DNA of 43,043 nt, from positions 1 through 43,043 of the forward strand of contig JBBQPO010000016.1 in the NCBI GenBank assembly GCA_038217285.1. The letters run 5' to 3'. Position 1 is the first letter of the stretch, and each line of letters starts with the position of its first letter. The position numbers and the translations under genes were made by a program. Below the pieces are notes generated by a model. The model had not been told where the DNA came from. It was given only the letters and a program-made list of their open reading frames with translations, and did no database searches. Source of the DNA: Chthonomonadales bacterium. Lineage in GTDB: Bacteria; Armatimonadota; Chthonomonadetes; Chthonomonadales; Chthonomonadaceae. Below, piece after piece: positions 1 through 43,043 of this stretch.

Positions 1-1923
1 GAACTGCTGGAGAAGGAGGGCGACGGCGTGTGGTTCGTGGAGCTTGCTCCCCTGACCGATGCCGCGCTTGTTCCACAGACGGTCGCAAACGCACTGGGAG
101 TGAAGGAGGAAGCCGGCAAACCAATATTGCAGTCGCTCGTAGACTATCTCAAGTCGAAACGCATGCTCATCCTCCTCGACAACTGCGAACACCTGCTGGA
201 CCCCACCGCAAAACTCGCTGACACGCTGCTGAGGCAGTGCCCGAACATCACGATGCTTGCCTCAAGCCGGGAGGCGTTGAACATTGCGGGCGAAACGCAG
301 TACCGTGTGCCTTCCCTCTCCCTGCCGGACCTGAAGCAGCCTCAAACGGTCGAAAGCCTCACGCAATTCGAGGCTGTACGCCTGTTCATCGAGCGAGCGT
401 TACAGGTGCGAACTTCCTTTGCGGTCACGAACGACAGCGCACCTGCCCTGGCCCAGATCTGCGTACAACTCGACGGTATCCCTCTGGCGATTGAACTCGC
501 GGCGGCCCGTGTCCGTTCGCTATCGATGCAAGAGATCAATGGGAAACTCAACGATCGGTTTCGTCTGCTAACCGGGGGGTCACGAACCGCCCTGCCGCGC
601 CAGCAGACGCTCCGTGCCCTGATCGACTGGTCGTACGATCTGCTGAATGCGCAGGAACAGGCGTTCCTGGGCAGGCTCGCTGTGTTCACAGGGGGATGCG
701 TTCTGGAAGCAGCCGAGCAAGTTGGTGTGTCGGACAGTCCGGAAGGCGGCGTCGAAGTATGGGAAGTCCTCGACCTGCTCACGAGCCTGACGGACAAGAA
801 CCTCGTCGTCGCGGATACCGGCACACCGACCCGCTACCGCCTGCTGGAAACGGTACGGCAGTACGCGGCGGAGAAGCTGCAGGCCAGTGGCGAGGCGAAC
901 GCCACACAGAGCCGGCATCTGGCCTTCCATGTCGCGCTGATGACAGAAGCCAAGCCGAAAATGAAGGGAGCCGACGCATTGGTCTGGCTCGACCGACTGG
1001 AAGCGGAGCATGACAACCTGCGGGCCGCGCTGACCTGGGCTGAGGAGATTCCTGGTGGCATGGAGAGCGGACTGCGCATGGCTGCGGTGATGGAGCGGTT
1101 CTGGAGGGTGCGAGGGTATCTGAACGAAGGCCGAACCGTCCTGGCACGGATGATCGCACAGGCCGATGCTGCCGTGTCACCGGTCGTGCTGGCAAACGCG
1201 CTGAATGCGGCAGGCATTCTGGCGCAGTTCCAAAACGACAATCGAGAGGCGCTAACGCTGTACGAACGCACAAAAACACTCTGGGAAGAGCTGGACAATC
1301 TGCACGGGGTCGCCAGCGCGTTGAACAATCTCGGAATGATCGCTTCCAATCTGGGTGATTTTGAGCAGTCTCGGCGCATTACAGAGGAGGCGCTTCAAAT
1401 CAACCGTCGCCTCGGAAATCGGCAGTCGGAAGCGATCAATCTCAATAATCTGGGGCTTCTCGCCATTCATCAGCGCGACTATACGGCGGCGCAGTCGTTT
1501 CTGGAAGCCGCTCTTCTGATCAACCGCGAGATAGGAATGCGCGAATGGGAGGTGGGCAACCTGCTCAATCTCGGCAAGTCGGCGCTGCAACAGGGCGAGC
1601 AGAGGCGCGCCATGGAGTGGCTCACCGAGGCGCTCACGCTCAGTCAGGCGCTGGACTACAAAATTATCATCGCCGAAACGCTGGAAGCTTTTTCGGAGAT
1701 GGCGGTGCAGCGGGCTCAGTGGGAACGGGCGGGAATGTTCTGGGGCGCGTCCGAAATCTTACGAGAAACGATCTCCTACCCCATCCCGCTCGATGAGCGA
1801 CAGGACTATGACCGCGCCGTAGCGGCGGCACAGCAGGCAACCGAGGCCGTTACGTTCGCGGCATGGTGGCTGGAAGGTCGCACTCTCTCTCTGGACCAAG
1901 CAATTGAACTGGCTCTGGGATAG
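1..1923 (+). CDS. STAND/NB-ARC-like ATPase with winged helix and C-terminal TPRs (AfsR/LuxR/adenylate-cyclase-associated type), 5'-truncated
   Basis: Frame is open from base 1. Walker B-like LILLDNCEHL, GIPLAIELAAAR (GLPLA motif), RQQTLRALIDWSYDLL and RYRLLETVRQYA, followed by TPR repeats (ALNNLG). The Walker A motif and N-terminus lie before the window. Confidence 0.9.
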   Translation, partial: ELLEKEGDGVWFVELAPLTDAALVPQTVANALGVKEEAGKPILQSLVDYLKSKRMLILLDNCEHLLDPTAKLADTLLRQCPNITMLASSREALNIAGETQYRVPSLSLPDLKQPQTVESLTQFEAVRLFIERALQVRTSFAVTNDSAPALAQICVQLDGIPLAIELAAARVRSLSMQEINGKLNDRFRLLTGGSRTALPRQQTLRALIDWSYDLLNAQEQAFLGRLAVFTGGCVLEAAEQVGVSDSPEGGVEVWEVLDLLTSLTDKNLVVADTGTPTRYRLLETVRQYAAEKLQASGEANATQSRHLAFHVALMTEAKPKMKGADALVWLDRLEAEHDNLRAALTWAEEIPGGMESGLRMAAVMERFWRVRGYLNEGRTVLARMIAQADAAVSPVVLANALNAAGILAQFQNDNREALTLYERTKTLWEELDNLHGVASALNNLGMIASNLGDFEQSRRITEEALQINRRLGNRQSEAINLNNLGLLAIHQRDYTAAQSFLEAALLINREIGMREWEVGNLLNLGKSALQQGEQRRAMEWLTEALTLSQALDYKIIIAETLEAFSEMAVQRAQWERAGMFWGASEILRETISYPIPLDERQDYDRAVAAAQQATEAVTFAAWWLEGRTLSLDQAIELALG

Positions 1924-2056
1924 GCCTCTCCCCTCCTTCGCCCTGTTTTTCGCGTCCGAGTTCGGTAGTGCAGCAGGATTATGCTCCTGATGCGGCGAAA
2001 AACGTAATCAGAGGTTGGAAATCGCACTATCGTTCAGACTACGAGGAGGTTCGATC

Positions 2057-3367
2057 ATGTCGGAAGACAAACGGATAGATCGTCGTTCCCTGATCCAGGG
2101 GGTGTTGGGGGCGGGAGCGGGAGCAACGTTGTTCAACGTCGTTCCCGCCTCGGCGCTGGGACTCGGGGGCCATGTCGCGCCGAGCAACCGCATTGTGATG
2201 GGATGTATCGGCCTGGGGGGGCAGGGTTCCGGCAACATGGGCACCTTCCTGAACATGCCGGATACGCAGATCGTCGCCGTCTGCGACGTCGATAAGAATC
2301 ATCTTGCGGGCGCGAAACAGACCGTGGATCGCCATAACAACAATCAGAGCTGCGCGACCTATAGCGACTTCCGCGAGCTGCTCAGTCGCAAAGACCTGGA
2401 TGCGCTCTCCCTGGCAACTCCGGATCACTGGCACGCCATTCCGGCCATCATGGCGCTGAACGCGGGCCTCGATGTCTACGGCGAGAAGCCCGTCTCGCAC
2501 TGCCTTGCCGAAGGCCGCGCCATGGCGGATGCACAGAAGAAGAACAACCGCATCTGGCAGACGGGAAGCTGGCAACGCTCGGAGAGCCATTTCCGCACCG
2601 CGTGTGAACTGGTGCGCAACGGACGCATCGGCAAGGTCGCTCGGATCGAAGTCGGCTTGCCGACCGGGAGTCCGCACGGCCCAGTGCAGTTCAAGGACGC
2701 TCCGCCGGAGCTCGACTACGAGTTCTGGGTCGGTCCGTCGCGCTGGGCTCCCTACTGCGACGAGCGCACCCACTGGAACTGGCGCTGGCAGCTCGACTAT
2801 GGCGGCGGCCAGATGATGGACTGGATCGGACATCATGCCGACATCGCAAACTGGGGCATGGGTTGGGACAGCACCGGCCCGGTCGAGATCGAAGGCAAAG
2901 GCGAATATCCTACCGAGGGAATCTGGAACGCCGCCACGGTCTACCACTTCATCGCTAAGTACAAAGACGGCGCCGAGATGCACGTCGCCAACGGCGGAAA
3001 CGCGGGCATTCGCAGCGGCACGAAATGGATCGGCGAAGACGGCCGGTGGATATGGGTGGATCGCGGCAACAACAGCCTGGAGGCCAGTGCGAAGTCTATT
3101 CTCGAAGCGAAAGTCGGGCCGAACGAGACGCAACTGTTCCGGAGTCCGGGGCACTGGCGCGAGTTCCTGGACAGCGTGAAGAGCCGCCGTCCGACCATCG
3201 CTCCCTGCGAGACCGGGCATCGCGCGGCGTCCATCGGCCATCTGGGCCAGATCGCCATGCTGACAGGCCGTAAGCTCCACTGGAACCCGGATACCGAGCA
3301 GTTCAAGGACGATCCGACGGCGACCCGCATGCTCTCCACACCGATGCGCGCCCCCTGGCATATCTAA
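2057..3367 (+). CDS. Tat-exported Gfo/Idh/MocA family oxidoreductase
   Basis: AGGAGG RBS before ATG 2057. Twin-arginine signal DRRSLI; motifs IGLGGQG, ATPDHWH, YGEKP and GGGQMMDWIGHH. Confidence 0.93.
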   Translation: MSEDKRIDRRSLIQGVLGAGAGATLFNVVPASALGLGGHVAPSNRIVMGCIGLGGQGSGNMGTFLNMPDTQIVAVCDVDKNHLAGAKQTVDRHNNNQSCATYSDFRELLSRKDLDALSLATPDHWHAIPAIMALNAGLDVYGEKPVSHCLAEGRAMADAQKKNNRIWQTGSWQRSESHFRTACELVRNGRIGKVARIEVGLPTGSPHGPVQFKDAPPELDYEFWVGPSRWAPYCDERTHWNWRWQLDYGGGQMMDWIGHHADIANWGMGWDSTGPVEIEGKGEYPTEGIWNAATVYHFIAKYKDGAEMHVANGGNAGIRSGTKWIGEDGRWIWVDRGNNSLEASAKSILEAKVGPNETQLFRSPGHWREFLDSVKSRRPTIAPCETGHRAASIGHLGQIAMLTGRKLHWNPDTEQFKDDPTATRMLSTPMRAPWHI

Positions 3368-3510
3368 CGCCTGCATGAGCCACGTCTCCCGCCCAGGTCC
3401 CTACCAGGCAGGAGACGTCGGCTTCCCCTCGTTTTCCTTTCCTCCGACTCTGCGCCCAACCGACGGCGGCAAGCGGGGACGACATCCATTCTCCGAAAGG
3501 ACCATCTGGC

Positions 3511-5571
3511 ATGAAGCCGACTCATCGAATGGCGACAGCGTTGACGCTGACCGCACTGGTTGCCGGGGCCACTCTTTCCTCCCACGCAGGAGGACGCGGC
3601 GCTCAGGACAACCCCTTTGAAAAACTGAAGACGTACGACTTTCAAACCTACGCGCCCGTCGATGCGATCCGCAAGATGATCCAGGACTCGGGCGATGACA
3701 AGGTCAAAACGGCAGACATCGAGCAGCATCTCATCGGGGTGCTGGAGGATACGAACGCGACCTTTGCGGGAAAGCAGGAGGCCTGCCGCCTGCTCTGGAT
3801 CATCGGGTCCGCTCGCTCGGTGCCGGTGCTGTCGAAGCTGCTGACCGACCCGAAGCAGGCCGATATCGCCCGCTACGCGCTCGAACGCAATCCCGACGCG
3901 GCGGCAGGGAAGGCGCTGCGTACGGCCCTCTCCTCGACGAAAGGCTCCACGCGGATCGGGGTGATCAACTCGGTCGGAAACCGGGGCGATGCCGAGGCGG
4001 TCGGCGCTCTCAAAGCGTTCATCCTTAACTCGGACCCGCTTGTGTCTGAAGCGGCGATCAGCGCGCTCGGTAAAGTCGGAACTCTGAGCGCGCTGGCGGC
4101 GCTGCGATCCCTGCCCTCTACCAACGTGTCAGCGGCACGAGCCATTTTGCATGTAGCGGAGCATTTCGCAGTGACCGGCAGACAAGCCGATGCCAGCCGG
4201 GTCTACGACAGTCTCACCGGTGAGGGCAGACCGGCGGTCATCCGGGGGGAGGCGCTGCGCGGTCTTGCCGTCCTGCCGTCGCCGCATGCGGCTGCGGTAG
4301 CGCTCGCCTTTCTGAACTCCTCCGACCTCTACCTGCAAGAGGTCGGGGCACGCACCGCTGGCTCGCTCGCCGACCCGCAGACCACCCGGAGCGTTCTCGC
4401 AGCCTTCCCGACGCTCCCGTCCGCGACTCAGACCGTCCTGCTGACCGCCCTTTCCGAGCGCAATGAGGCGGCGGCCCTCCCCGTGGTAGAATCATCCATT
4501 CAGAGCACAGACCCGCTGGTACGCGGTGCGGCCATCCGCGCCCTCGCCCGCCTCGGCGGCGGAAAAGCGGTGCCGGTTTTAGTGAACATCGCTCGCACGG
4601 GTGAAGGAGATGACAAACGGATCGCCCGCGAGAGCCTGGCGAGCATGCCCGGCGCGGACGCCGAACAGGCGATCCTCCAGACGGCCCTCAAAGGGGCTCC
4701 TGCAGAACGCGCGCTCCTGATGGGCATTCTGTCTGAGCGCCCCTCTCCCGCCGTCACGGCGGCGCTGCTGGAGGCCGCACGCGGTTCCGACCCCAGCGTT
4801 GCGGTGGAAGCCGCCCGCGCCTTGGGACGCACCGGAGGCATGAAAGAGCACGGCGAACTGCTGAAGGTGGTCCTCACCACGCACGACGCCGATATCCGCG
4901 ATGCGGCGCGCGATGCCGTGGTGACTATCGGGACGCGTCTCGGCAACCGCGATGAGGCCACGGCTCCCGTGCTCGACGCGCTGCCGGGTACGGCGGGAGC
5001 CGCGAAAGCCGCCCTGCTCGCCATTCTGGCAGGCACCGGCGGAGACCGTGCGCTGGAAGAGCTCACGAGAGCCGCCGGCTCTCAAGACGCCGAAGTCAAA
5101 CAGGCTGCCGTCACGCTGCTGGCCAATTCGTGGTCCGACTCGCGCCCGCTCCCGACCTTGCAGTATGTCGCGAAGACCTCCGCCGACAAGTCGCTGCGGA
5201 TCGAATCGGTGCGAGGTTACCTGCGTCTTGTCGGACAGGACGACCGTATGCCCGCCGACCAGAAGGTGATGAAAATCACGCTGATTCTGCCGCTGGCGGA
5301 GCGGCCTGAAGAGAAACGCCAGGCGCTGGCCATTCTGCGCGACTGCCGTCTCTCGTCGGCCGTCGAGCAGGCCGCGACTCTGCTTAACGACCCGATGGTT
5401 GGTGCGGACGCCGGGGACACCGTTCTGGACCTTGCCGCTCCCCAAAGACGACGGAACCGGAACCTGCCTGCTGTTAAGAGCACGGCCACCACGGCCGCGT
5501 TGAACAAGATCATTCAGACCGGCCCGGATGACCAGAAACAACGTGCCCAGAAGCTGAAGGACTCCCCGTAG
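3511..5571 (+). CDS. Secreted HEAT-repeat protein
   Basis: N-terminal signal peptide and many Ala/Leu-rich HEAT-like repeats (e.g. DPLVRGAAIRALARLGG). Confidence 0.85.
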   Translation: MKPTHRMATALTLTALVAGATLSSHAGGRGAQDNPFEKLKTYDFQTYAPVDAIRKMIQDSGDDKVKTADIEQHLIGVLEDTNATFAGKQEACRLLWIIGSARSVPVLSKLLTDPKQADIARYALERNPDAAAGKALRTALSSTKGSTRIGVINSVGNRGDAEAVGALKAFILNSDPLVSEAAISALGKVGTLSALAALRSLPSTNVSAARAILHVAEHFAVTGRQADASRVYDSLTGEGRPAVIRGEALRGLAVLPSPHAAAVALAFLNSSDLYLQEVGARTAGSLADPQTTRSVLAAFPTLPSATQTVLLTALSERNEAAALPVVESSIQSTDPLVRGAAIRALARLGGGKAVPVLVNIARTGEGDDKRIARESLASMPGADAEQAILQTALKGAPAERALLMGILSERPSPAVTAALLEAARGSDPSVAVEAARALGRTGGMKEHGELLKVVLTTHDADIRDAARDAVVTIGTRLGNRDEATAPVLDALPGTAGAAKAALLAILAGTGGDRALEELTRAAGSQDAEVKQAAVTLLANSWSDSRPLPTLQYVAKTSADKSLRIESVRGYLRLVGQDDRMPADQKVMKITLILPLAERPEEKRQALAILRDCRLSSAVEQAATLLNDPMVGADAGDTVLDLAAPQRRRNRNLPAVKSTATTAALNKIIQTGPDDQKQRAQKLKDSP

Positions 5572-39183: not shown

Positions 39184-39561
39184 CTAGCCGACCTTACGCT
39201 CCTCGAAGTCGTCCGGCGCGGGAAAGGTTTCCGTCTTCGGCTCCAGTGCCTCGATGGCGCGGGGATGCGCGCAGGGAAAATCCTTCTCCACATAGTAGCG
39301 CACGCCGTCCGATTCGAAATAGACTCCCTCCACGTCCGGTCCCAACAGCCGCAGAAGATCGACCGGCGCGAGAGAGATACGCAGCGTCGCGCCCAACTGC
39401 GTCAACGTCGTATCCGCCTCTGCCACCATCAGTTCGACCCGCCAACCACCGGCCGCTCCCAGATTCAACGTCGTGTCGATGGGGTAGCGCGCCTCCAACT
39501 GTGCCAGTTCCGACGGCGTCAGTCGCAGCCGCAGGCTCTCTTCCGTCCAGCGTACTTTCAT
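39184..39561 (-). CDS. Small conserved hypothetical protein (MK.R...SLRLRL..SE; VEKDF.C family)
   Basis: GGAGG RBS before ATG 39561; motifs MKVRWTEESLRLRLTPSE and YYVEKDFPC...FP.P. Confidence 0.7.
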   Translation of the reverse strand: MKVRWTEESLRLRLTPSELAQLEARYPIDTTLNLGAAGGWRVELMVAEADTTLTQLGATLRISLAPVDLLRLLGPDVEGVYFESDGVRYYVEKDFPCAHPRAIEALEPKTETFPAPDDFEERKVG

Positions 39562-39648
39562 ACCCTCCAATTGCATACCCACGCCCTCAATTCCTCCTCG
39601 TGGGGCAGAGGCTGACCCTGGGTGGTGAATAAAAATCAGCACAATCTC

Positions 39649-39677
39649 TTGAACGTCGTTTCCGGTTGTGATATACT
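39649..39677 (+). promoter_or_regulatory. Near-consensus sigma70 promoter driving the ncRNA and the downstream gene
   Basis: TTGAAC (39649-39654), 17-nt spacer, extended -10 TGaTATACT (39669-39677). Confidence 0.75.
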
Positions 39678-39730
39678 GGCTGGAGTGGACAAACAGAGGA
39701 ACAACTTTTGTTCACAAACGGATTTTCCGA

Positions 39731-39966
39731 ATTAGAGGGCGAGTTTAGCCAGCAATCAGACTGCGGTGTTTCGCCGTGGCTGCCGTCAAGCCTGTTTCAC
39801 ATCACCGGACATCGATTCTACTCAGCGGTAGGGGCATACTAGTTGTTGCCCCTTCGGCGCTGAGGAGACGTAGTCCACACTAGGTGAAACAACTAGTATG
39901 CCCCTACCGCCTACAGTGACCGACGCCGGTTCCGAGGTGGCTTAGTGGCGAGACGCGCCCTCTAAT
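39731..39966 (+). ncRNA. Candidate retron msr-msd non-coding RNA
   Basis: Closing inverted repeat ATTAGAGGGCG (39731-39741)/CGCCCTCTAAT (39956-39966), extendable to ~21 bp and followed by G39752 in AGC. Hairpins at 39761-39779 and 39778-39792. Perfect 23-bp stem 39825-39847/39888-39910 with a 40-nt branched apex. Confidence 0.68.
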
Positions 39967-40085
39967 ACCCCTTCCTACGCGATGTCGCGCGACGGGTGTG
40001 ACCACAGATTATGAAATCCATCATGGTGCATCGCCTCGTGCCCTATTCCCGGCAATGAATTGCCGTTCTGAGAGGAAGTCCTCTT

Positions 40086-43037
40086 ATGGCCCGAAAAGAG
40101 TCGCCGGACCGGCCCCTCTTCGCCCGTGTCCAGGCACAGTTGCAGGTGATCGGCGTCGAGGCAATGCTGCATGCCGCACAGGAAGATCTGCTCCATTTTA
40201 TCCGTAAAGCACCGCTCGTCTATGGTTTTTGGGCGGATTTCAAACGCCTTGTTAAAGCCGCAGAGGGTTCGGTGCCGGTCGGGCCGACGGCTGCCCTTCT
40301 TGCGCGCCTGGATACGGCAGCCTTGCCAAAACACACCCTCTCGCTGCCTGTCTCTCCTCTGGAAGGGCAGATCAACCAGGTTGGTCGCCTCGACTACGAC
40401 GGTAAATATGCCTACCTCATCAGTGTTTACTGGAATTCTCCGGGGTTGTACATCGTCGATATGACGATCCCCGCGATGCCGACTGTCGTCACGCACATAA
40501 AACTACCCGGCCTGTCAGATGTCGTGGTCGCAGGTACGAAAATGTTCCTGCTCCAGGGTACGGCAGAGAACGCTCCCGGAAAACTCTACTGTTACGACGT
40601 CTCGGATCCGGGTCACCCGCAGAAAGAGTCCGAAATCCTGATCTCAAATGGTATACGGCTCGCCGTAGCTGGCTCCACGATCTGTGTGGCGACGATGCAG
40701 CCCCGCAGTCCCGGACTCCAACTGGTCGATGCCTCTCGGCGCGATCAGTTGCGTCTGCTGGGTCGCCTCCACGTGAAGGATCCCATCGCCGTGCAGATCG
40801 CAGGCAGCCACGTCTATGTCATCAGCACCCCGCCGCAGGGCAACCTCCGAACGAGCCTGGTTATCGCCGATATTTCCGATCCCCTTCAGCCGCGACAGAT
40901 TCATACGCTTGATCTTCCTCCTGCCACAGGACTGGTGATCCAGGGCCGTTACGCCTACGTCGCCTGTACGCACGGCAGCAATACCGGGCCCGACGATCAG
41001 ACGGGCCTTGCCGTCATCGATCTGGCTCCGCCGAATTTCACTGCGGCCCAGCGCGTCGCTTTCGTCGCCGTTGGAAACGTTCAGGATGTTGCGGTTGAGG
41101 GCCGTTACGTCTATGTGGGTGTAGGAAAGAGAGGGTACTCGGATCGGAACAACGGGGGCCTTCGTATCTTCGATATCTCGGATCCTGCCCGGCCACAGTT
41201 GGCAGGCTCCTTTATGGCGGACGAGGCCCACTCTATGAAGGTCGTTGGCGATATCGCGTGCCTCACGGTCGCGCATCGGTGGAACGAACTGTTCCTGCCG
41301 ATGAACGTCGCGGAGCCAGCGCGGCCCCTCCTGCTCGGCGCGCCTCCTAGCCGCGACACACTGGGCTATATGAAACGGAGGGGCCGACGGCTGATGCGAA
41401 CGCTGGCGCTGCAGGATCCGGAAGTCTATGTCCGTACGGCCGCGCAGATGCTGATCGAAGCCGGGCAGGCCCAGACGAATCTGGATCCGCGCCTTCAATG
41501 GATCTCCATGGATCTGCTCTACGGCGGCGGAACGCGCTTCGAACAGCAGGCTCACGGTCGGGGCAGCTACAGCGTTGCGCGCCGTGGTCTGTCGCTTCGA
41601 ACAAGGGAAGAACGGCATCCGGAACTCTGGGACCGCTATCCCGAACTGGCGCAGCAACTCTTCACCACGCCCCGGCTGCCATGGCAGACCTGGGAAGCCT
41701 CCTGCAAGATGCTGCGTAACATAACAGCGCCTTTGCCAGTCCTCAACGACGGAATGCTGGCACAGTTCCTCGCCTCCGAGTCGCCGCTCCTCCGCTCGGT
41801 CGCCGCGAGGCAGGTCGCCGCAATGCTGGAGGCCGGCCGAAATGTAGCGGCGGATGTCGTGGCCGAAACCTACGTTGGCGGGACGCGCCGACAACGTGAG
41901 ACTATCGCCCGTTTCATCGCGGCACAGGAGAGCACGTCGCGCTGGATGACAGCGTTCGCCACGCGGCTCTACAAGATCGCGAACGGACTCGTCAGAGGCG
42001 CTGTCCCGCGCAAGGCTGCCCTGTCGTTCGCCCTGCTGATCGCGCACTTTCCCGATCTGTCCGGCCAGGATGTCCCTGCGGGCACCGCAGTCGCCCTCTA
42101 CGGCACAGGACGGCCCATCTTCGAAGCCTGGGCGCGGAGTGTGTTTGGGAAGTTGCTCCCGCTGCAGTTGCCGGAATGGTTGTTCGCGCTCGCCGCCTTG
42201 CCTGCCGGGCTGCGCGAGAGCGCGGCGCAGGCTGTCGCCGCAGGCATGGCGACTCAGGCGATTCCGCCCAGAACACTCTGGTCTCTGACCAGTCACGAGG
42301 ATCCATGGGTACGGGAGGTAAGCTGGCGAATTCTGGCGCGCAGTCAGACGCCTCTGCCCGACATCGCGATCATATGGACCGCGCTCCTGGCTGCGAATGA
42401 GGCGACGCCAGCGCTTCTCACAGCCTTCGCGGCGCCCGACGCGCTGGCCCTATTCGACCGATGCGAGTTCGATAGCTGGGCGATGGCCGGGCAGTTGGAG
42501 GCCAATCCGTTCCTCATTCCCCTGTTGCCGCCGGCTGCGCTCGAGAAGATCGTCTCGGTCCTGCCTCCGGCCTCTCTGCTGCAAGTGGTGGCCGAGGCAT
42601 CGGACGAACAGTGGCCGAGATTGAGACAGGCGATTCTCCTCGGGTCGCTGCTGCCGAAGCATCGGACCGCCTTCTGGCGTGAGGTGTTTGCCGCCATCGG
42701 AGCGACGGGCAACGCAAATCTGACGCTGCGTCTGCTGGACGACGTACCGATGCAGGCAGCCTTTCTGCAACTGGCCGATATAAGCGAATTCCTGCGGAGC
42801 GCCAATCCTCTCTTCGGGCTGTTACTCGGCCTCTGGATCGCTGGTCATACCGACCTCTTTCGCCGGGATTCTGCCGAACTGCTCCAGATCGCCACCCATC
42901 CCCTGCCGCAGATACGCGTGGTCGGGCTGGCGCGTGCTCGGGAGGTCGGCTTGAGTCTGCCCTTCGCGCTGCGGCTGCTAGAAGCGCGGCCGAAAAGTCG
43001 CCTTCCAAACCAAAGGAATTGTTGGGTTGTGTGGTGA
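40086..43037 (+). CDS. Large helical (ARM/HEAT-like) protein with internal LVIVD beta-propeller; probable retron-associated protein, C-terminus probably truncated or chimeric
   Basis: About 7 LVIVD-type repeats (G.YAYV...GL.I.D.SDP..P) at roughly aa 95-415, flanked by helical regions containing SRDTLGYMKRRGRRLMRTL and REERHPELWD. The last ~16 codons look compositionally foreign. Confidence 0.75.
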   Translation: MARKESPDRPLFARVQAQLQVIGVEAMLHAAQEDLLHFIRKAPLVYGFWADFKRLVKAAEGSVPVGPTAALLARLDTAALPKHTLSLPVSPLEGQINQVGRLDYDGKYAYLISVYWNSPGLYIVDMTIPAMPTVVTHIKLPGLSDVVVAGTKMFLLQGTAENAPGKLYCYDVSDPGHPQKESEILISNGIRLAVAGSTICVATMQPRSPGLQLVDASRRDQLRLLGRLHVKDPIAVQIAGSHVYVISTPPQGNLRTSLVIADISDPLQPRQIHTLDLPPATGLVIQGRYAYVACTHGSNTGPDDQTGLAVIDLAPPNFTAAQRVAFVAVGNVQDVAVEGRYVYVGVGKRGYSDRNNGGLRIFDISDPARPQLAGSFMADEAHSMKVVGDIACLTVAHRWNELFLPMNVAEPARPLLLGAPPSRDTLGYMKRRGRRLMRTLALQDPEVYVRTAAQMLIEAGQAQTNLDPRLQWISMDLLYGGGTRFEQQAHGRGSYSVARRGLSLRTREERHPELWDRYPELAQQLFTTPRLPWQTWEASCKMLRNITAPLPVLNDGMLAQFLASESPLLRSVAARQVAAMLEAGRNVAADVVAETYVGGTRRQRETIARFIAAQESTSRWMTAFATRLYKIANGLVRGAVPRKAALSFALLIAHFPDLSGQDVPAGTAVALYGTGRPIFEAWARSVFGKLLPLQLPEWLFALAALPAGLRESAAQAVAAGMATQAIPPRTLWSLTSHEDPWVREVSWRILARSQTPLPDIAIIWTALLAANEATPALLTAFAAPDALALFDRCEFDSWAMAGQLEANPFLIPLLPPAALEKIVSVLPPASLLQVVAEASDEQWPRLRQAILLGSLLPKHRTAFWREVFAAIGATGNANLTLRLLDDVPMQAAFLQLADISEFLRSANPLFGLLLGLWIAGHTDLFRRDSAELLQIATHPLPQIRVVGLARAREVGLSLPFALRLLEARPKSRLPNQRNCWVVW

Positions 43038-43043
43038 ATCTAT

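Follow-up and report, generated by a model that had tools for sequence, protein, structure and literature searches.

The stretch examined here comprises positions 39731–39966 (plus strand) of a 43,043-nt contig, C16, from a Chthonomonadaceae (Armatimonadota) genome. This whole contig is referred to as the window. The promoter-like site, the parts of the RNA, and the first protein gene described below lie on its plus strand. The stretch is followed by a gene at 40086–43043 which codes for an LVIVD beta-propeller/HEAT-ARM protein and which is cut by the contig end. It is the first protein gene of an operon with the order RNA, LVIVD-propeller/HEAT-ARM gene, SWIM/BRCT gene, and retron reverse transcriptase (RT).

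Upstream of the stretch, a promoter-like site is predicted at 39649–39677 (TTGAAC-17-TATACT, the −10 element being extended by TG). It is the only sigma-70-like site in 39500–40200, a region for which shuffled sequences contain 0.3 on average, and its hexamers are conserved in the relatives G001–G003 (alignment A2). A terminator-like site was sought ahead of the next gene and none was found; a tRNA/tmRNA search likewise found none. Comparison of the whole window with Rfam 15 at the gathering score returned no matches. With E-values up to 10, Rfam 15 gave nothing relevant in 39500–40200, msr family included; the lone matches in this region were a miRNA-like one to the hairpin (E 0.9) and cow-rumen-1 (E 0.84).

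Fold, conservation, and covariation of the RNA

A preliminary description of this DNA had claimed that the stretch has the msr–msd layout of a retron RNA, and this claim is borne out by its fold and by its conservation. The minimum free energy of a 261-nt stretch is −114.1 kcal/mol, compared to a mean of −84.2 kcal/mol (sd 5.1) for shuffled sequences (z = −5.86; 0/200 shuffles are as good). For the analysis of conservation, 25 copies from 18 loci were aligned and 56 pairs were scored. The structure is kept by compensatory change: 88.5% of the cells are paired, compared to 66.6% upon shuffling (0/500 shuffles reach the observed value) and 33–47% after sliding of the 3' partners. Compensatory change is seen in 38/56 pairs, and the covariation score amounts to 0.585 versus 0.203. 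A lack of stem conservation and covariation had been named beforehand as evidence against a retron; the stems are conserved and covary across the 25 copies.

The outer duplex of the preliminary description is present. Its 5' arm a1 (39731–39751) forms 19 pairs with the 3' arm a2 (39946–39966), 11 of them in an unbroken run, and the duplexfold energy is −30 kcal/mol. An a1/a2 duplex of 15–26 bp is found in 25/25 copies, with arm sequences which are unrelated (mean pairwise identity 0.30–0.34). Its inner five pairs covary, four of them with changes on both sides. The unpaired guanosine that had been pointed out next to this duplex, G39752, is invariant in 25/25 copies, is followed by an invariant C, and in 22/25 copies stands directly 3' of the last a1 pair. 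We predict that it is the priming (branching) guanosine. Its context is CAGC in the window and [A/G]GC across the copies. A CAGC context is reported for the priming G of Mx162 and Sa163 in PMC6868368, along with an AGC/CAGC rule.

Two short msr hairpins had been described, of which the first stands and the second does not. Hairpin 1 (39761–39779; 8 bp, UUU loop) is paired in 99% of the cells over the 25 copies, and 4/8 pairs have changed on both sides. It is rich in G·U pairs (47/200 cells), which fits a helix that forms only as RNA on the plus strand. The proposed second hairpin, GGCT...AGCC, overlaps hairpin 1, is paired in only 67% of the cells, has no pair that changed on both sides, and is not supported. 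We assign msr hairpin 2 to 39785–39800 (GTCAAG/TTTCAC). It is weak in the window copy due to a C·C mismatch, and the family helix GTGAAG/CTTCAC (39785–39790/39795–39800) is paired in 74.7% of the cells with 13 compensatory cells, which 0/500 shuffles reach.

The msd region (39804–39930) consists of a lower stem, a conserved internal loop, a long stem, and an apex. The lower stem, 39804–39814 with 39921–39930, confirms the lower extension noted previously; 94.2% of its cells are paired and 4/9 pairs have changed on both sides. Within the RNA, conservation is highest in the flanks of the internal loop (identity 0.71–0.82). The long msd hairpin (39825–39910) was also recognized correctly, with a perfect 23-bp Watson–Crick stem (39825–39847/39888–39910) and a 40-nt apex (39848–39887). 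The apex, for which a fold into three mini-hairpins had been proposed, shows conservation at the sequence level (mean pairwise identity 0.59) and carries a conserved CGCUGAG. The arms of the long stem show an identity of 0.31 between copies, and 26/28 aligned pairs have changed on both sides. When unbroken runs are counted per copy, this stem has 604 Watson–Crick and 3 G·U pairs (3/607); in the alignment, ~14 of ~695 cells are G·U. Because a G·U pair in the RNA becomes a C·A mismatch in the cDNA, a stem that is restricted to Watson–Crick pairs suits a helix that folds both as RNA and as cDNA.

Just 5' of a2, the dinucleotide AG at 39944–39945 (A223 and G224 of the first sequence in the alignment) is invariant in 25/25 copies. 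Because of retron biochemistry, as outlined in PMC6868368, these are predicted to be the first template bases of the cDNA.

The operon and its occurrence in relatives

The preliminary description had guessed that the retron is of type XIII, and the protein families of the operon, as well as an RNA match in a canonical type XIII locus (see below), show this guess to be right. The 40086 protein matches the PADLOC profiles HEAT-ARM_XIII (2.5e-13) and WGR_XIII (2.1e-11), the latter only at profile positions 307–641. WGR_XIII profile positions 1–306 are unmatched, no Pfam WGR domain was found in this protein, and an LVIVD beta-propeller (Pfam, 4.8e-15) is there instead. The type XIII HEAT/ARM partner (cluster 216) has an N-terminal WGR-like domain in most members (Mestre et al., 2020; PADLOC); HEAT/ARM partners without WGR are also listed for type XIII (Mestre et al., 2020).

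The RT had been expected beyond the right edge of the window or elsewhere, and the former appears to be the case. Another contig of the assembly, C12, carries the last 92 codons of the HEAT gene (assigned by homology), SWIM_XIII, and RT_XIII. The contig break thus appears to split the operon, C16 ending inside the HEAT gene and C12 continuing it. This adjacency is based on a homologous gene that is split over two contig ends, with ~66 codons missing; no exact overlap between the ends of C16 and C12 was found. Relatives hold the whole operon on one contig. Type XIII systems have a partner with a SWIM zinc finger (cluster 114), and the SWIM protein matches SWIM_XIII at positions 1–504 of 509 (E 7.1e-167); the Pfam SWIM domain is weak (E 0.0086), and there is an extra BRCT domain (6.4e-14).

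A genome devoid of a retron RT would have spoken against the claim; RT_XIII (PDLC02956) is matched on C12 with an E-value of 1.8e-155 at positions 16–423 of 469, the next best profile being at 3e-95, and has the motifs YADD, NAxxH, and VTG. NAxxH and VTG are the motifs which define retron RTs. A consensus of four RTs from this clade shows RYADD, NARQH, and AVTG. The YADD tetrad is described in PMC6868368. Two further genes were considered as parts of the system and set aside. For a 404-aa ORF that follows the RT, the closest relative alone has a homologue (1/21 loci), and conservation of the upstream DUF7009 gene is limited to the genus.

The order RNA-HEAT-SWIM-RT is found in 16/16 related loci which have at least ~5.7 kb upstream of the RT; four loci that lack this upstream DNA and one that has only the 3' end of the RNA at the contig start are left out of this count. 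G019 and G002 carry RNA and RT together on a single contig and on one strand. The RNA lies 5–8.3 kb ahead of the RT, with two genes in between; it shares the strand of the RT and apparently its operon. The RNA of a retron is usually contiguous with the RT, and in this clade it is not. This distance is the clade's departure from the usual layout and is not counter-evidence to the role of the RNA. Among 151 sampled Armatimonadota genomes, 19 have both the RNA and RT_XIII, one has only the RNA, four have only the RT (no RNA match being found in these four RT_XIII-positive genomes), and 127 have neither.

In one relative, G003, promoter, a1, and msr are still present, whereas the msd hairpin and the genes that follow have been lost; a search for an RT_XIII homologue in its genome (85% complete) was negative. 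Retron loss therefore occurs in this genus, and the RNA gene of the window might be genuine and belong to a decaying system that no longer works. The HEAT reading frame, which ends oddly 6 nt before the end of C16, could be read in the same way. However, this odd end coincides with the assembly break and a homologous tail is present on C12, all RNA elements are intact in the window, and both reading frames on C12 (SWIM and RT) are uninterrupted and full-length compared to their profiles. We consider a nonfunctional remnant very unlikely and favor an intact retron.

The position of the RNA also allows it to be read as a cis-acting 5' leader, resembling a riboswitch or an attenuator, that controls the propeller/HEAT gene without any reverse transcription. 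It is flanked by the promoter-like site and the first gene, no terminator separates the two, the HEAT gene comes after it throughout this clade, and tandem copies, which relatives of the window have, exist for some riboswitches. However, RNA of the same family is found in Methylobacterium between the SWIM and RT genes, far from the start of the WGR/HEAT gene. The element displays the complete layout of a retron RNA, including the invariant G where the duplex ends, its hypervariable stem is kept in Watson–Crick pairs only, unlike in ligand-binding leaders, and RT_XIII is present in 19/20 of the RNA-positive genomes sampled. A regulatory leader is hardly tenable in view of these data. We thus consider it very likely that 39731–39966 (plus strand) is the msr–msd noncoding RNA gene of a type XIII retron (Mx162 class) of this Chthonomonadaceae genome. 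The system is a member of the already catalogued retron type XIII.

Partial copies, tandem units, and proposed mechanism

In its own genome, the RNA is single-copy except for one 34-nt partial copy of msd, which is located next to tpiA. When searched with R1, a covariance model built from the copies of this clade, the tpiA copy is matched at the apex alone (E 0.014). Its interpretation as a longer, internally deleted relic of the RNA is not supported, as local alignment scores of the flanks are reached by 215/2000 shuffles on the left and 871/2000 on the right. It was rejected as a guide target or att site (bridge-RNA-like, integrase core): the apex, instead of varying from genome to genome, is conserved. 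No recombinase was found near the RNA. No second site resembling the tpiA copy was found for the RNA units of G019, G002, and G001 in their genomes.

The preliminary description had considered genome-wide recurrence as a REP/MITE-like repeat to be the outcome that would contradict it, and the single 34-nt partial copy is all that was found in this genome. A palindromic repeat, or the inverted ends of a mobile element in an intergenic gap, would account for the perfect 23-bp inverted repeat and for a piece that recurs once, and relatives do carry true palindromic repeat families. However, the RNA units of G019, G002, and G001 are also without other copies in their genomes, synteny at this position extends across families, and the stems show covariation instead of having been copied. 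The probability of a repeat element is practically negligible compared to that of a retron RNA.

The window has a single RNA unit, and relatives carry one to three in tandem. Two or three units are found in L026, L027, L029, L044, G043, G083, G118, and G163. Within an array, the units carry individual a1/a2 arms and individual, perfectly Watson–Crick-paired msd stems, while the scaffold and the apex motif are common to all. Arm identity within an array is 0.21–0.37 in three arrays and ~0.6 in a fourth. In G019, the two RNA units are separated by a spacer for which dozens of matches exist in the G019 genome and which represents a palindromic repeat family.

These data allow a wider interpretation, which we put forward tentatively and regard as rather unlikely in its entirety. 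In an Armatimonadota-centred clade, the template RNA may have become detached to the head of the operon and multiplied into arrays of up to three msr–msd units, so that one RT would produce several distinct msDNAs per cell. The stem would be a fast-evolving specificity element, and the 34-nt tpiA copy would be a trace of retron cDNA having entered the chromosome. If true, the arrays are a natural counterpart of engineered "multitron" arrays.

For the system in the window, we envisage the following course. Transcription would start from the site at 39649–39677, the RNA being the 5' part of one transcript that continues through the HEAT-ARM, SWIM/BRCT, and RT genes. Pairing of a1 and a2 would place G39752 and the AG at 39944–39945, both of them invariant, side by side. 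The RT would prime from the 2'-OH of G39752 and copy msd leftward from ~39945 to ~39800. The product would be a branched msDNA with an estimated size of ~140–150 nt, the DNA part of which would refold into the long hairpin. By analogy with known retrons, a particle of msDNA and RT may restrain the two accessory proteins until phage infection disturbs it. An anti-phage function is presumed for type XIII; a literature search on type XIII retrons, Mx162, and retrons with SWIM and HEAT returned nothing on a defence phenotype or mechanism, and vertical inheritance and possible non-defence roles have been noted (Mestre et al., 2020).

Short contigs of 157, 206, and 205 nt, assembled from RNA libraries of two studies, are confined to 39743–39949 and include none of the flanks. 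They are a weak hint of expression, as they come from relatives which are ~90–98% alike and as such libraries can hold DNA. A rise in DNA-run depth over msd (run X1) was rejected as a sign of msDNA because the figures add up contig depths from several strains and also include the tpiA copy. Small word shares of runs X2, X5, and X6 were set aside as habitat evidence.

A retron template RNA can thus be recognized from raw sequence with the RT out of view. Type XIII retrons, together with a structure-supported RNA model, are extended into the Armatimonadota. A full-text literature search found no paper that mentions retrons together with Armatimonadota; loci of this clade may already be contained in the supplementary files of Mestre et al. 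(2020). Because the RNA is 5–8 kb away from the RT, pipelines that seek it only beside the RT (e.g., 300–600 bp upstream) would miss this clade. The tandem units and the hypervariable stem with its Watson–Crick-only pairing provide leads on template choice by the RT and on the part of the msDNA that is read by the partners, and both may interest builders of multiplexed retron editors. The family is compact and well aligned with clear invariant positions, a useful start for work on the mechanism of type XIII.

Comparison with known systems

The experimentally known type XIII retrons (RT clade 10; Mestre et al., 2020) are Retron-Mxa1 (Mx162), Mxa2 (Mx65), Sau1 (Sa163), and Nex2 (Ne144). The system described here shares with them the RT_XIII family with its N-terminal extension, the SWIM/DEDE-type and HEAT/ARM partners, and the architecture of the RNA (a1/a2 duplex, short msr hairpins, a single long msd hairpin). 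According to PMC6868368, the priming G of Mx162 and Sa163 is embedded in CAGC, as is the one predicted here, and the primary transcript of Mx162 has 241 nt compared to a span of 236 nt from a1 to a2. The layout differs. In known type XIII retrons the RNA is contiguous with the RT, whereas here it heads the operon at a distance of 5–8 kb. A propeller replaces the WGR domain of canonical type XIII systems, and the SWIM protein has gained a BRCT domain.

A homologous RNA is found in the canonical type XIII locus of Methylobacterium bullatum (NZ_LR743510.1, L050), where R1 matches between SWIM_XIII and RT_XIII over the full model length (E 4.1e-9). Both RNAs have GCAA following the duplex, the GCGGCGUUUCGCCGU hairpin, and the same conserved sequences flanking the long stem, but they do not share the apex motif CGCUGAG. 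The order in M. bullatum is WGR/HEAT, SWIM, RNA, RT, with WGR_XIII matched over profile positions 1–969, whereas it is RNA, propeller/HEAT, SWIM plus BRCT, RT in the clade described here. On a plasmid from Clostridium butyricum (NZ_CP053375.1; L051, Firmicutes-type), the three protein genes have the same order as here. The SWIM and RT genes of L051 overlap so that there is no room for an RNA between them, as is the case here. Its lone RNA candidate is a weak match (E 0.0012) located just downstream of the RT (L051:9546–9784) and not upstream of the operon.

The arrays found in relatives have two counterparts. UG27 RT noncoding RNA arrays (bioRxiv 10.64898/2026.09.22.753630) also have tandem template units for one RT, each with its own hairpin; however, UG27 is a different RT class and lacks retron branching. 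The engineered retron "multitron" arrays (10.1101/2023.07.17.549397) likewise consist of tandem template units per RT, each with its own hairpin, but are man-made, whereas the arrays of the relatives are natural.

RNA fold and covariation

The RNA is encoded on the plus strand and spans 236 nt from a1 to a2. All of its main elements can be read in the sequence as the preliminary description had proposed them: the outer duplex a1/a2 (39731-39751 with 39946-39966), an unpaired candidate priming G at 39752 in a CAGC context, a small msr hairpin (39761-39779), a lower stem (39804-39814 with 39921-39930), and a long msd stem (39825-39847 with 39888-39910) of 23 perfect base pairs with a 40-nt apex between its arms. 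The minimum free energy of a 261-nt stretch folded as RNA is -114.1 kcal/mol, compared to a mean of -84.2 kcal/mol (sd 5.1) for shuffled versions (z = -5.86), and none of 200 shuffles equalled the native fold. A second msr hairpin that had also been proposed is unsupported across the aligned copies. The alternative hairpin GTGAAG/CTTCAC fits better in most of them, and a C.C mismatch weakens it in the window's copy. Rfam 15 produced no match in the whole window at the gathering score and locally nothing relevant at E up to 10, and a search of the window for tRNA and tmRNA genes was negative.

The RNA alignment comprises 25 copies (the window, genus member G001, and 23 copies from 16 further loci). 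RNAalifold predicted 56 pairs, 38 of which show compensatory changes. On the proposed structure, 88.5% of the cells are paired, compared to 66.6% upon shuffling (0 of 500 shuffles attained the observed value), and the covariation score is 0.585 versus 0.203, figures that overstate independence given the kinship among the copies. Controls with the 3' partners slid by 1-3 columns retain this relatedness, yet are far below the observed values (33-47% of cells paired). Column-wise alignment of the a1/a2 duplex is possible for its inner five pairs only, so each copy was folded individually; the duplex was found in all 25, with 15-26 bp. G39752, which had been put forward as the branching position, is invariant in 25/25 copies, as is the C that follows it, and is located immediately 3' of the last a1 pair in 22; branching itself is predicted. 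The AG at 39944-39945, directly 5' of a2, is likewise invariant across the 25 copies. For G39759, the alternative that had been offered, the alignment column is gapped in three copies.

Mean pairwise identity is 0.30-0.34 for the a1 and a2 arms and 0.31 for the long-stem arms, compared to 0.59 for the apex, 0.72 for the msr, and 0.71-0.82 for the lower stem and the internal-loop flanks. The RNA is thus a conserved scaffold which bears two hypervariable, complementary duplexes. G.U pairs account for 47 of 200 cells in the msr hairpin and for about 14 of about 695 aligned cells in the long stem; when unbroken long-stem runs are counted per copy, there are 604 Watson-Crick pairs and 3 G.U pairs. 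The many G.U pairs in the msr hairpin and in a1/a2 identify plus as the transcribed strand. Copied into complementary DNA, a G.U pair of the RNA turns into a C.A mismatch, so a helix required in template and cDNA alike is limited to Watson-Crick pairs. By these base-pairing rules, the scarcity of G.U in the long stem matches the expectation for an msd rather than that for an ordinary RNA helix.

Of the msd, 34 nt (39842-39875; 6 stem and 28 apex bases) recur with 100% identity elsewhere in the genome (L002 on contig C192, 227-260, minus strand). This copy is located about 60 nt downstream of the tpiA stop codon and there supplies the loop and 5' arm of a terminator-like hairpin of 15 bp. It bears the apex variants of this very genome, is absent from the corresponding place in the genus members G001-G003, and has no significant homology in its flanks. 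These comparisons suggest that a segment of the msd was recently transferred to the chromosome; the copy may be a remnant of DNA derived from the msd that was inserted there.

An operon split across two contigs

A 983-aa frame starts at 40086, 120 nt 3' of the RNA. It matches Pfam LVIVD (4.8e-15) and a beta-propeller family, and the PADLOC profiles HEAT-ARM_XIII (2.5e-13) and WGR_XIII (2.1e-11, profile positions 307-641 only). The latter two matches point to accessory proteins of type XIII retrons.

The window comprises all of contig C16, and the reverse transcriptase (RT) had been expected beyond its right edge. The genome has three RVT_1 genes, which encode a group II intron RT, an FHA-RT-primase fusion, and a retron RT on contig C12. 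The last of these, trimmed to its true start, codes for 473 aa and matches RT_XIII with E 1.8e-155. Just upstream is a gene for a 653-aa protein with a SWIM_XIII match (E 7.1e-167) and a C-terminal BRCT domain. The window's HEAT gene aligns with residues 75-1011 of the 1171-aa homologue from the relative G019, and the end of C12 (277 nt, read inwards) codes for residues 1078-1169 of that protein, directly ahead of the SWIM gene. Since both contigs match parts of one HEAT homologue, their ends abut, with about 66 codons missing between them, and the RT is situated just past the right edge, as had been proposed; no sequence overlap was found between the ends. In G019, a single contig carries, in this order, two RNA units and the genes for LVIVD/HEAT (1171 aa), SWIM/BRCT (660 aa), and RT (481 aa) proteins. 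In G002, RNA and RT are on the same contig and strand.

Alignment with HEAT protein homologues breaks off 57 nt before the end of the window (42987-43043), and the HEAT frame terminates 6 nt short of that end. This stop probably results from the assembly break and does not mark the true gene end.

The FHA-RT-primase fusion (L010, C56:20060-23665, ORF 838-3606) is a frame of at least 923 aa, open at the locus end, which joins FHA and RT (RVT_1 4.8e-27) domains to an archaeo-eukaryotic primase domain, the latter of the TOTE conflict-system type (1.4e-29; PADLOC PrimPol 3.8e-51). It is a second RT-based system of this genome, unrelated to the retron. The group II intron-type RT (L009, C373:65-3862, ORF 772-2715, minus strand; RVT_1 8.3e-33) carries maturase (Intron_maturas2) and AI2M-like HNH endonuclease domains.

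Distribution, tandem arrays, and a relic

An alignment of four RTs from the window's clade was used to search species-representative genomes and yielded 21 loci. The closest RTs (80-83% identity) are from MAGs labelled Chthonomonadaceae or Chthonomonadales. Others are from Capsulimonadaceae, Abditibacteriaceae, and other Armatimonadota; outside named Armatimonadota there are one Chloroflexia, one Actinomycetota, and one unclassified MAG. A sequence profile detected the RNA in 16/16 loci with at least about 5.7 kb of upstream DNA, on the RT strand and 5.5-6.6 kb upstream of the RT, and the gene order RNA, HEAT, SWIM, RT holds in all 16. Four of the remaining five loci have too little upstream DNA, and the fifth (L041) has only the RNA 3' end, at the contig start.

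Among 151 evenly sampled Armatimonadota genomes, the window's included, a covariance model built from the 25 copies matched in 20 and RT_XIII (E up to 1e-60) in 23. Both were found in 19, the RNA without RT_XIII in one (G043), RT_XIII without the RNA in four (G058, G097, G104, G106), and neither in 127; these counts are given without a statistical test because the genomes are kin and several exceptions are on short contigs. Of the 19 genomes having both, 17 have the RNA 5-8.3 kb from the RT on a shared contig and strand; in the window's genome and in G101 the two are on different contigs.

Three of the 16 loci have three tandem RNA units, one has two, and 12 have one. The arrays of two or three full msr-msd units before one operon are located at L026:3376-4223, L027:3426-4316, L029:3451-4225 (from G019), and L044:3230-4106, and the covariance model also revealed arrays in G043, G083, G118, and G163. 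Each unit has its own a1/a2 arms and msd stem, while the scaffold is near-identical (0.94-1.0 in the internal-loop flanks). An additional, separate RNA-plus-RT locus occurs in G118, G129, and G163. The G019 inter-unit spacer (L016:1244-1417; contig C2, about 1800380-1800553) contains a palindromic element of about 140 nt with dozens of genomic matches (54 listed, some of them self or both-strand), one of them shortly after the retron RT. The element represents a host repeat family and is not part of the retron RNA.

A retron relic was encountered in genus member G003 (L015, contig C594, reverse strand, about 260-560 of the reverse complement), beside a syntenic DUF7009 gene. It retains the promoter, a1, the priming-G context, and msr hairpin 1, and has lost the HEAT and downstream genes together with the msd hairpin and the greater part of a2. 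A search of this genome, which is 85% complete, detected no RT_XIII homologue. The window's DUF7009 gene (39184-39576, minus strand; Pfam 1.1e-10) is divergent and just upstream of the retron promoter. It was not considered a member of the system, being syntenic only within the genus (L025, L015).

Expression and relation to known type XIII retrons

A sigma-70-like site with an extended -10 (39649-39677) is conserved in the genus, and no terminator-like site was found between it and the HEAT gene. Six public runs contain part of a 1-kb stretch around the RNA, and contigs from four were aligned. Those from two metatranscriptome runs of two studies (157, 206, and 205 nt) cover 39743-39949 and neither flank, whereas a DNA run, the probable source of the assembly, covers the whole stretch. 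The metatranscriptome contigs, which stem from relatives (3 to 19 differences) and from RNA libraries, where DNA may also be present, weakly suggest that a small RNA or RNA-DNA species is abundant.

Applying the retron biochemistry described by Simon et al. (2019, PMC6868368) to this anatomy, the operon transcript would fold such that a1/a2 pairing presents G39752. The RT would prime at its 2'-OH and copy from about 39945 to about 39800, and RNase H would trim the template. A branched msDNA of roughly 140-150 nt would remain, the DNA refolding as a Watson-Crick-only hairpin that displays the conserved apex. Our literature search found no mechanistic study of type XIII retrons; non-defence roles are raised as a possibility for this type by Mestre et al. 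(2020, PMC7736814).

According to the same paper, the defining features of type XIII (RT clade 10) are a SWIM/DEDE protein, an ncRNA structure particular to the type, and HEAT/ARM proteins, the majority of which have a WGR-like domain; Mx162, Mx65, Sa163, and Ne144 are validated members. CAGC is described as the priming context of Mx162 and Sa163, along with a primary transcript of 241 nt for Mx162, an msd of 162 nt, and N-terminally extended RTs (Simon et al., 2019, PMC6868368), to be compared with CAGC, a 236-nt span, and a 473-aa RT in the case presented here. The covariance model was run, with filters off, on two type XIII loci of a plasmid collection. In Methylobacterium bullatum, which has a complete WGR_XIII protein upstream, a full-length match (E 4.1e-9) is located exactly between SWIM_XIII (E 4.8e-213) and RT_XIII (E 6.6e-176). 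The Clostridium butyricum locus has its three genes overlapping and a sole, weak RNA candidate (E 0.0012), just downstream of the RT. On the strength of the Methylobacterium match, the window RNA is homologous to that of a canonical type XIII retron, with a position that differs among lineages. The retron call of the preliminary description proved correct, given the fold, the covariation, the RT_XIII gene, and this match.

The literature search found no paper treating retrons together with Armatimonadota or Armatimonadetes, and the supplements of Mestre et al. may list such loci. Natural retron arrays were not found in that search either; for UG27 RTs, natural template RNA arrays have been reported, and retron arrays have been engineered. 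The published type XIII descriptions have the RNA next to the RT, and in M. bullatum it is between SWIM and RT, whereas it heads the operon in the window's clade. An LVIVD propeller takes the place of the usual WGR domain in the HEAT protein, the SWIM partner bears a BRCT domain, and in relatives two or three complete units form natural tandem arrays. With these departures, the system is of a known kind and not a new class.
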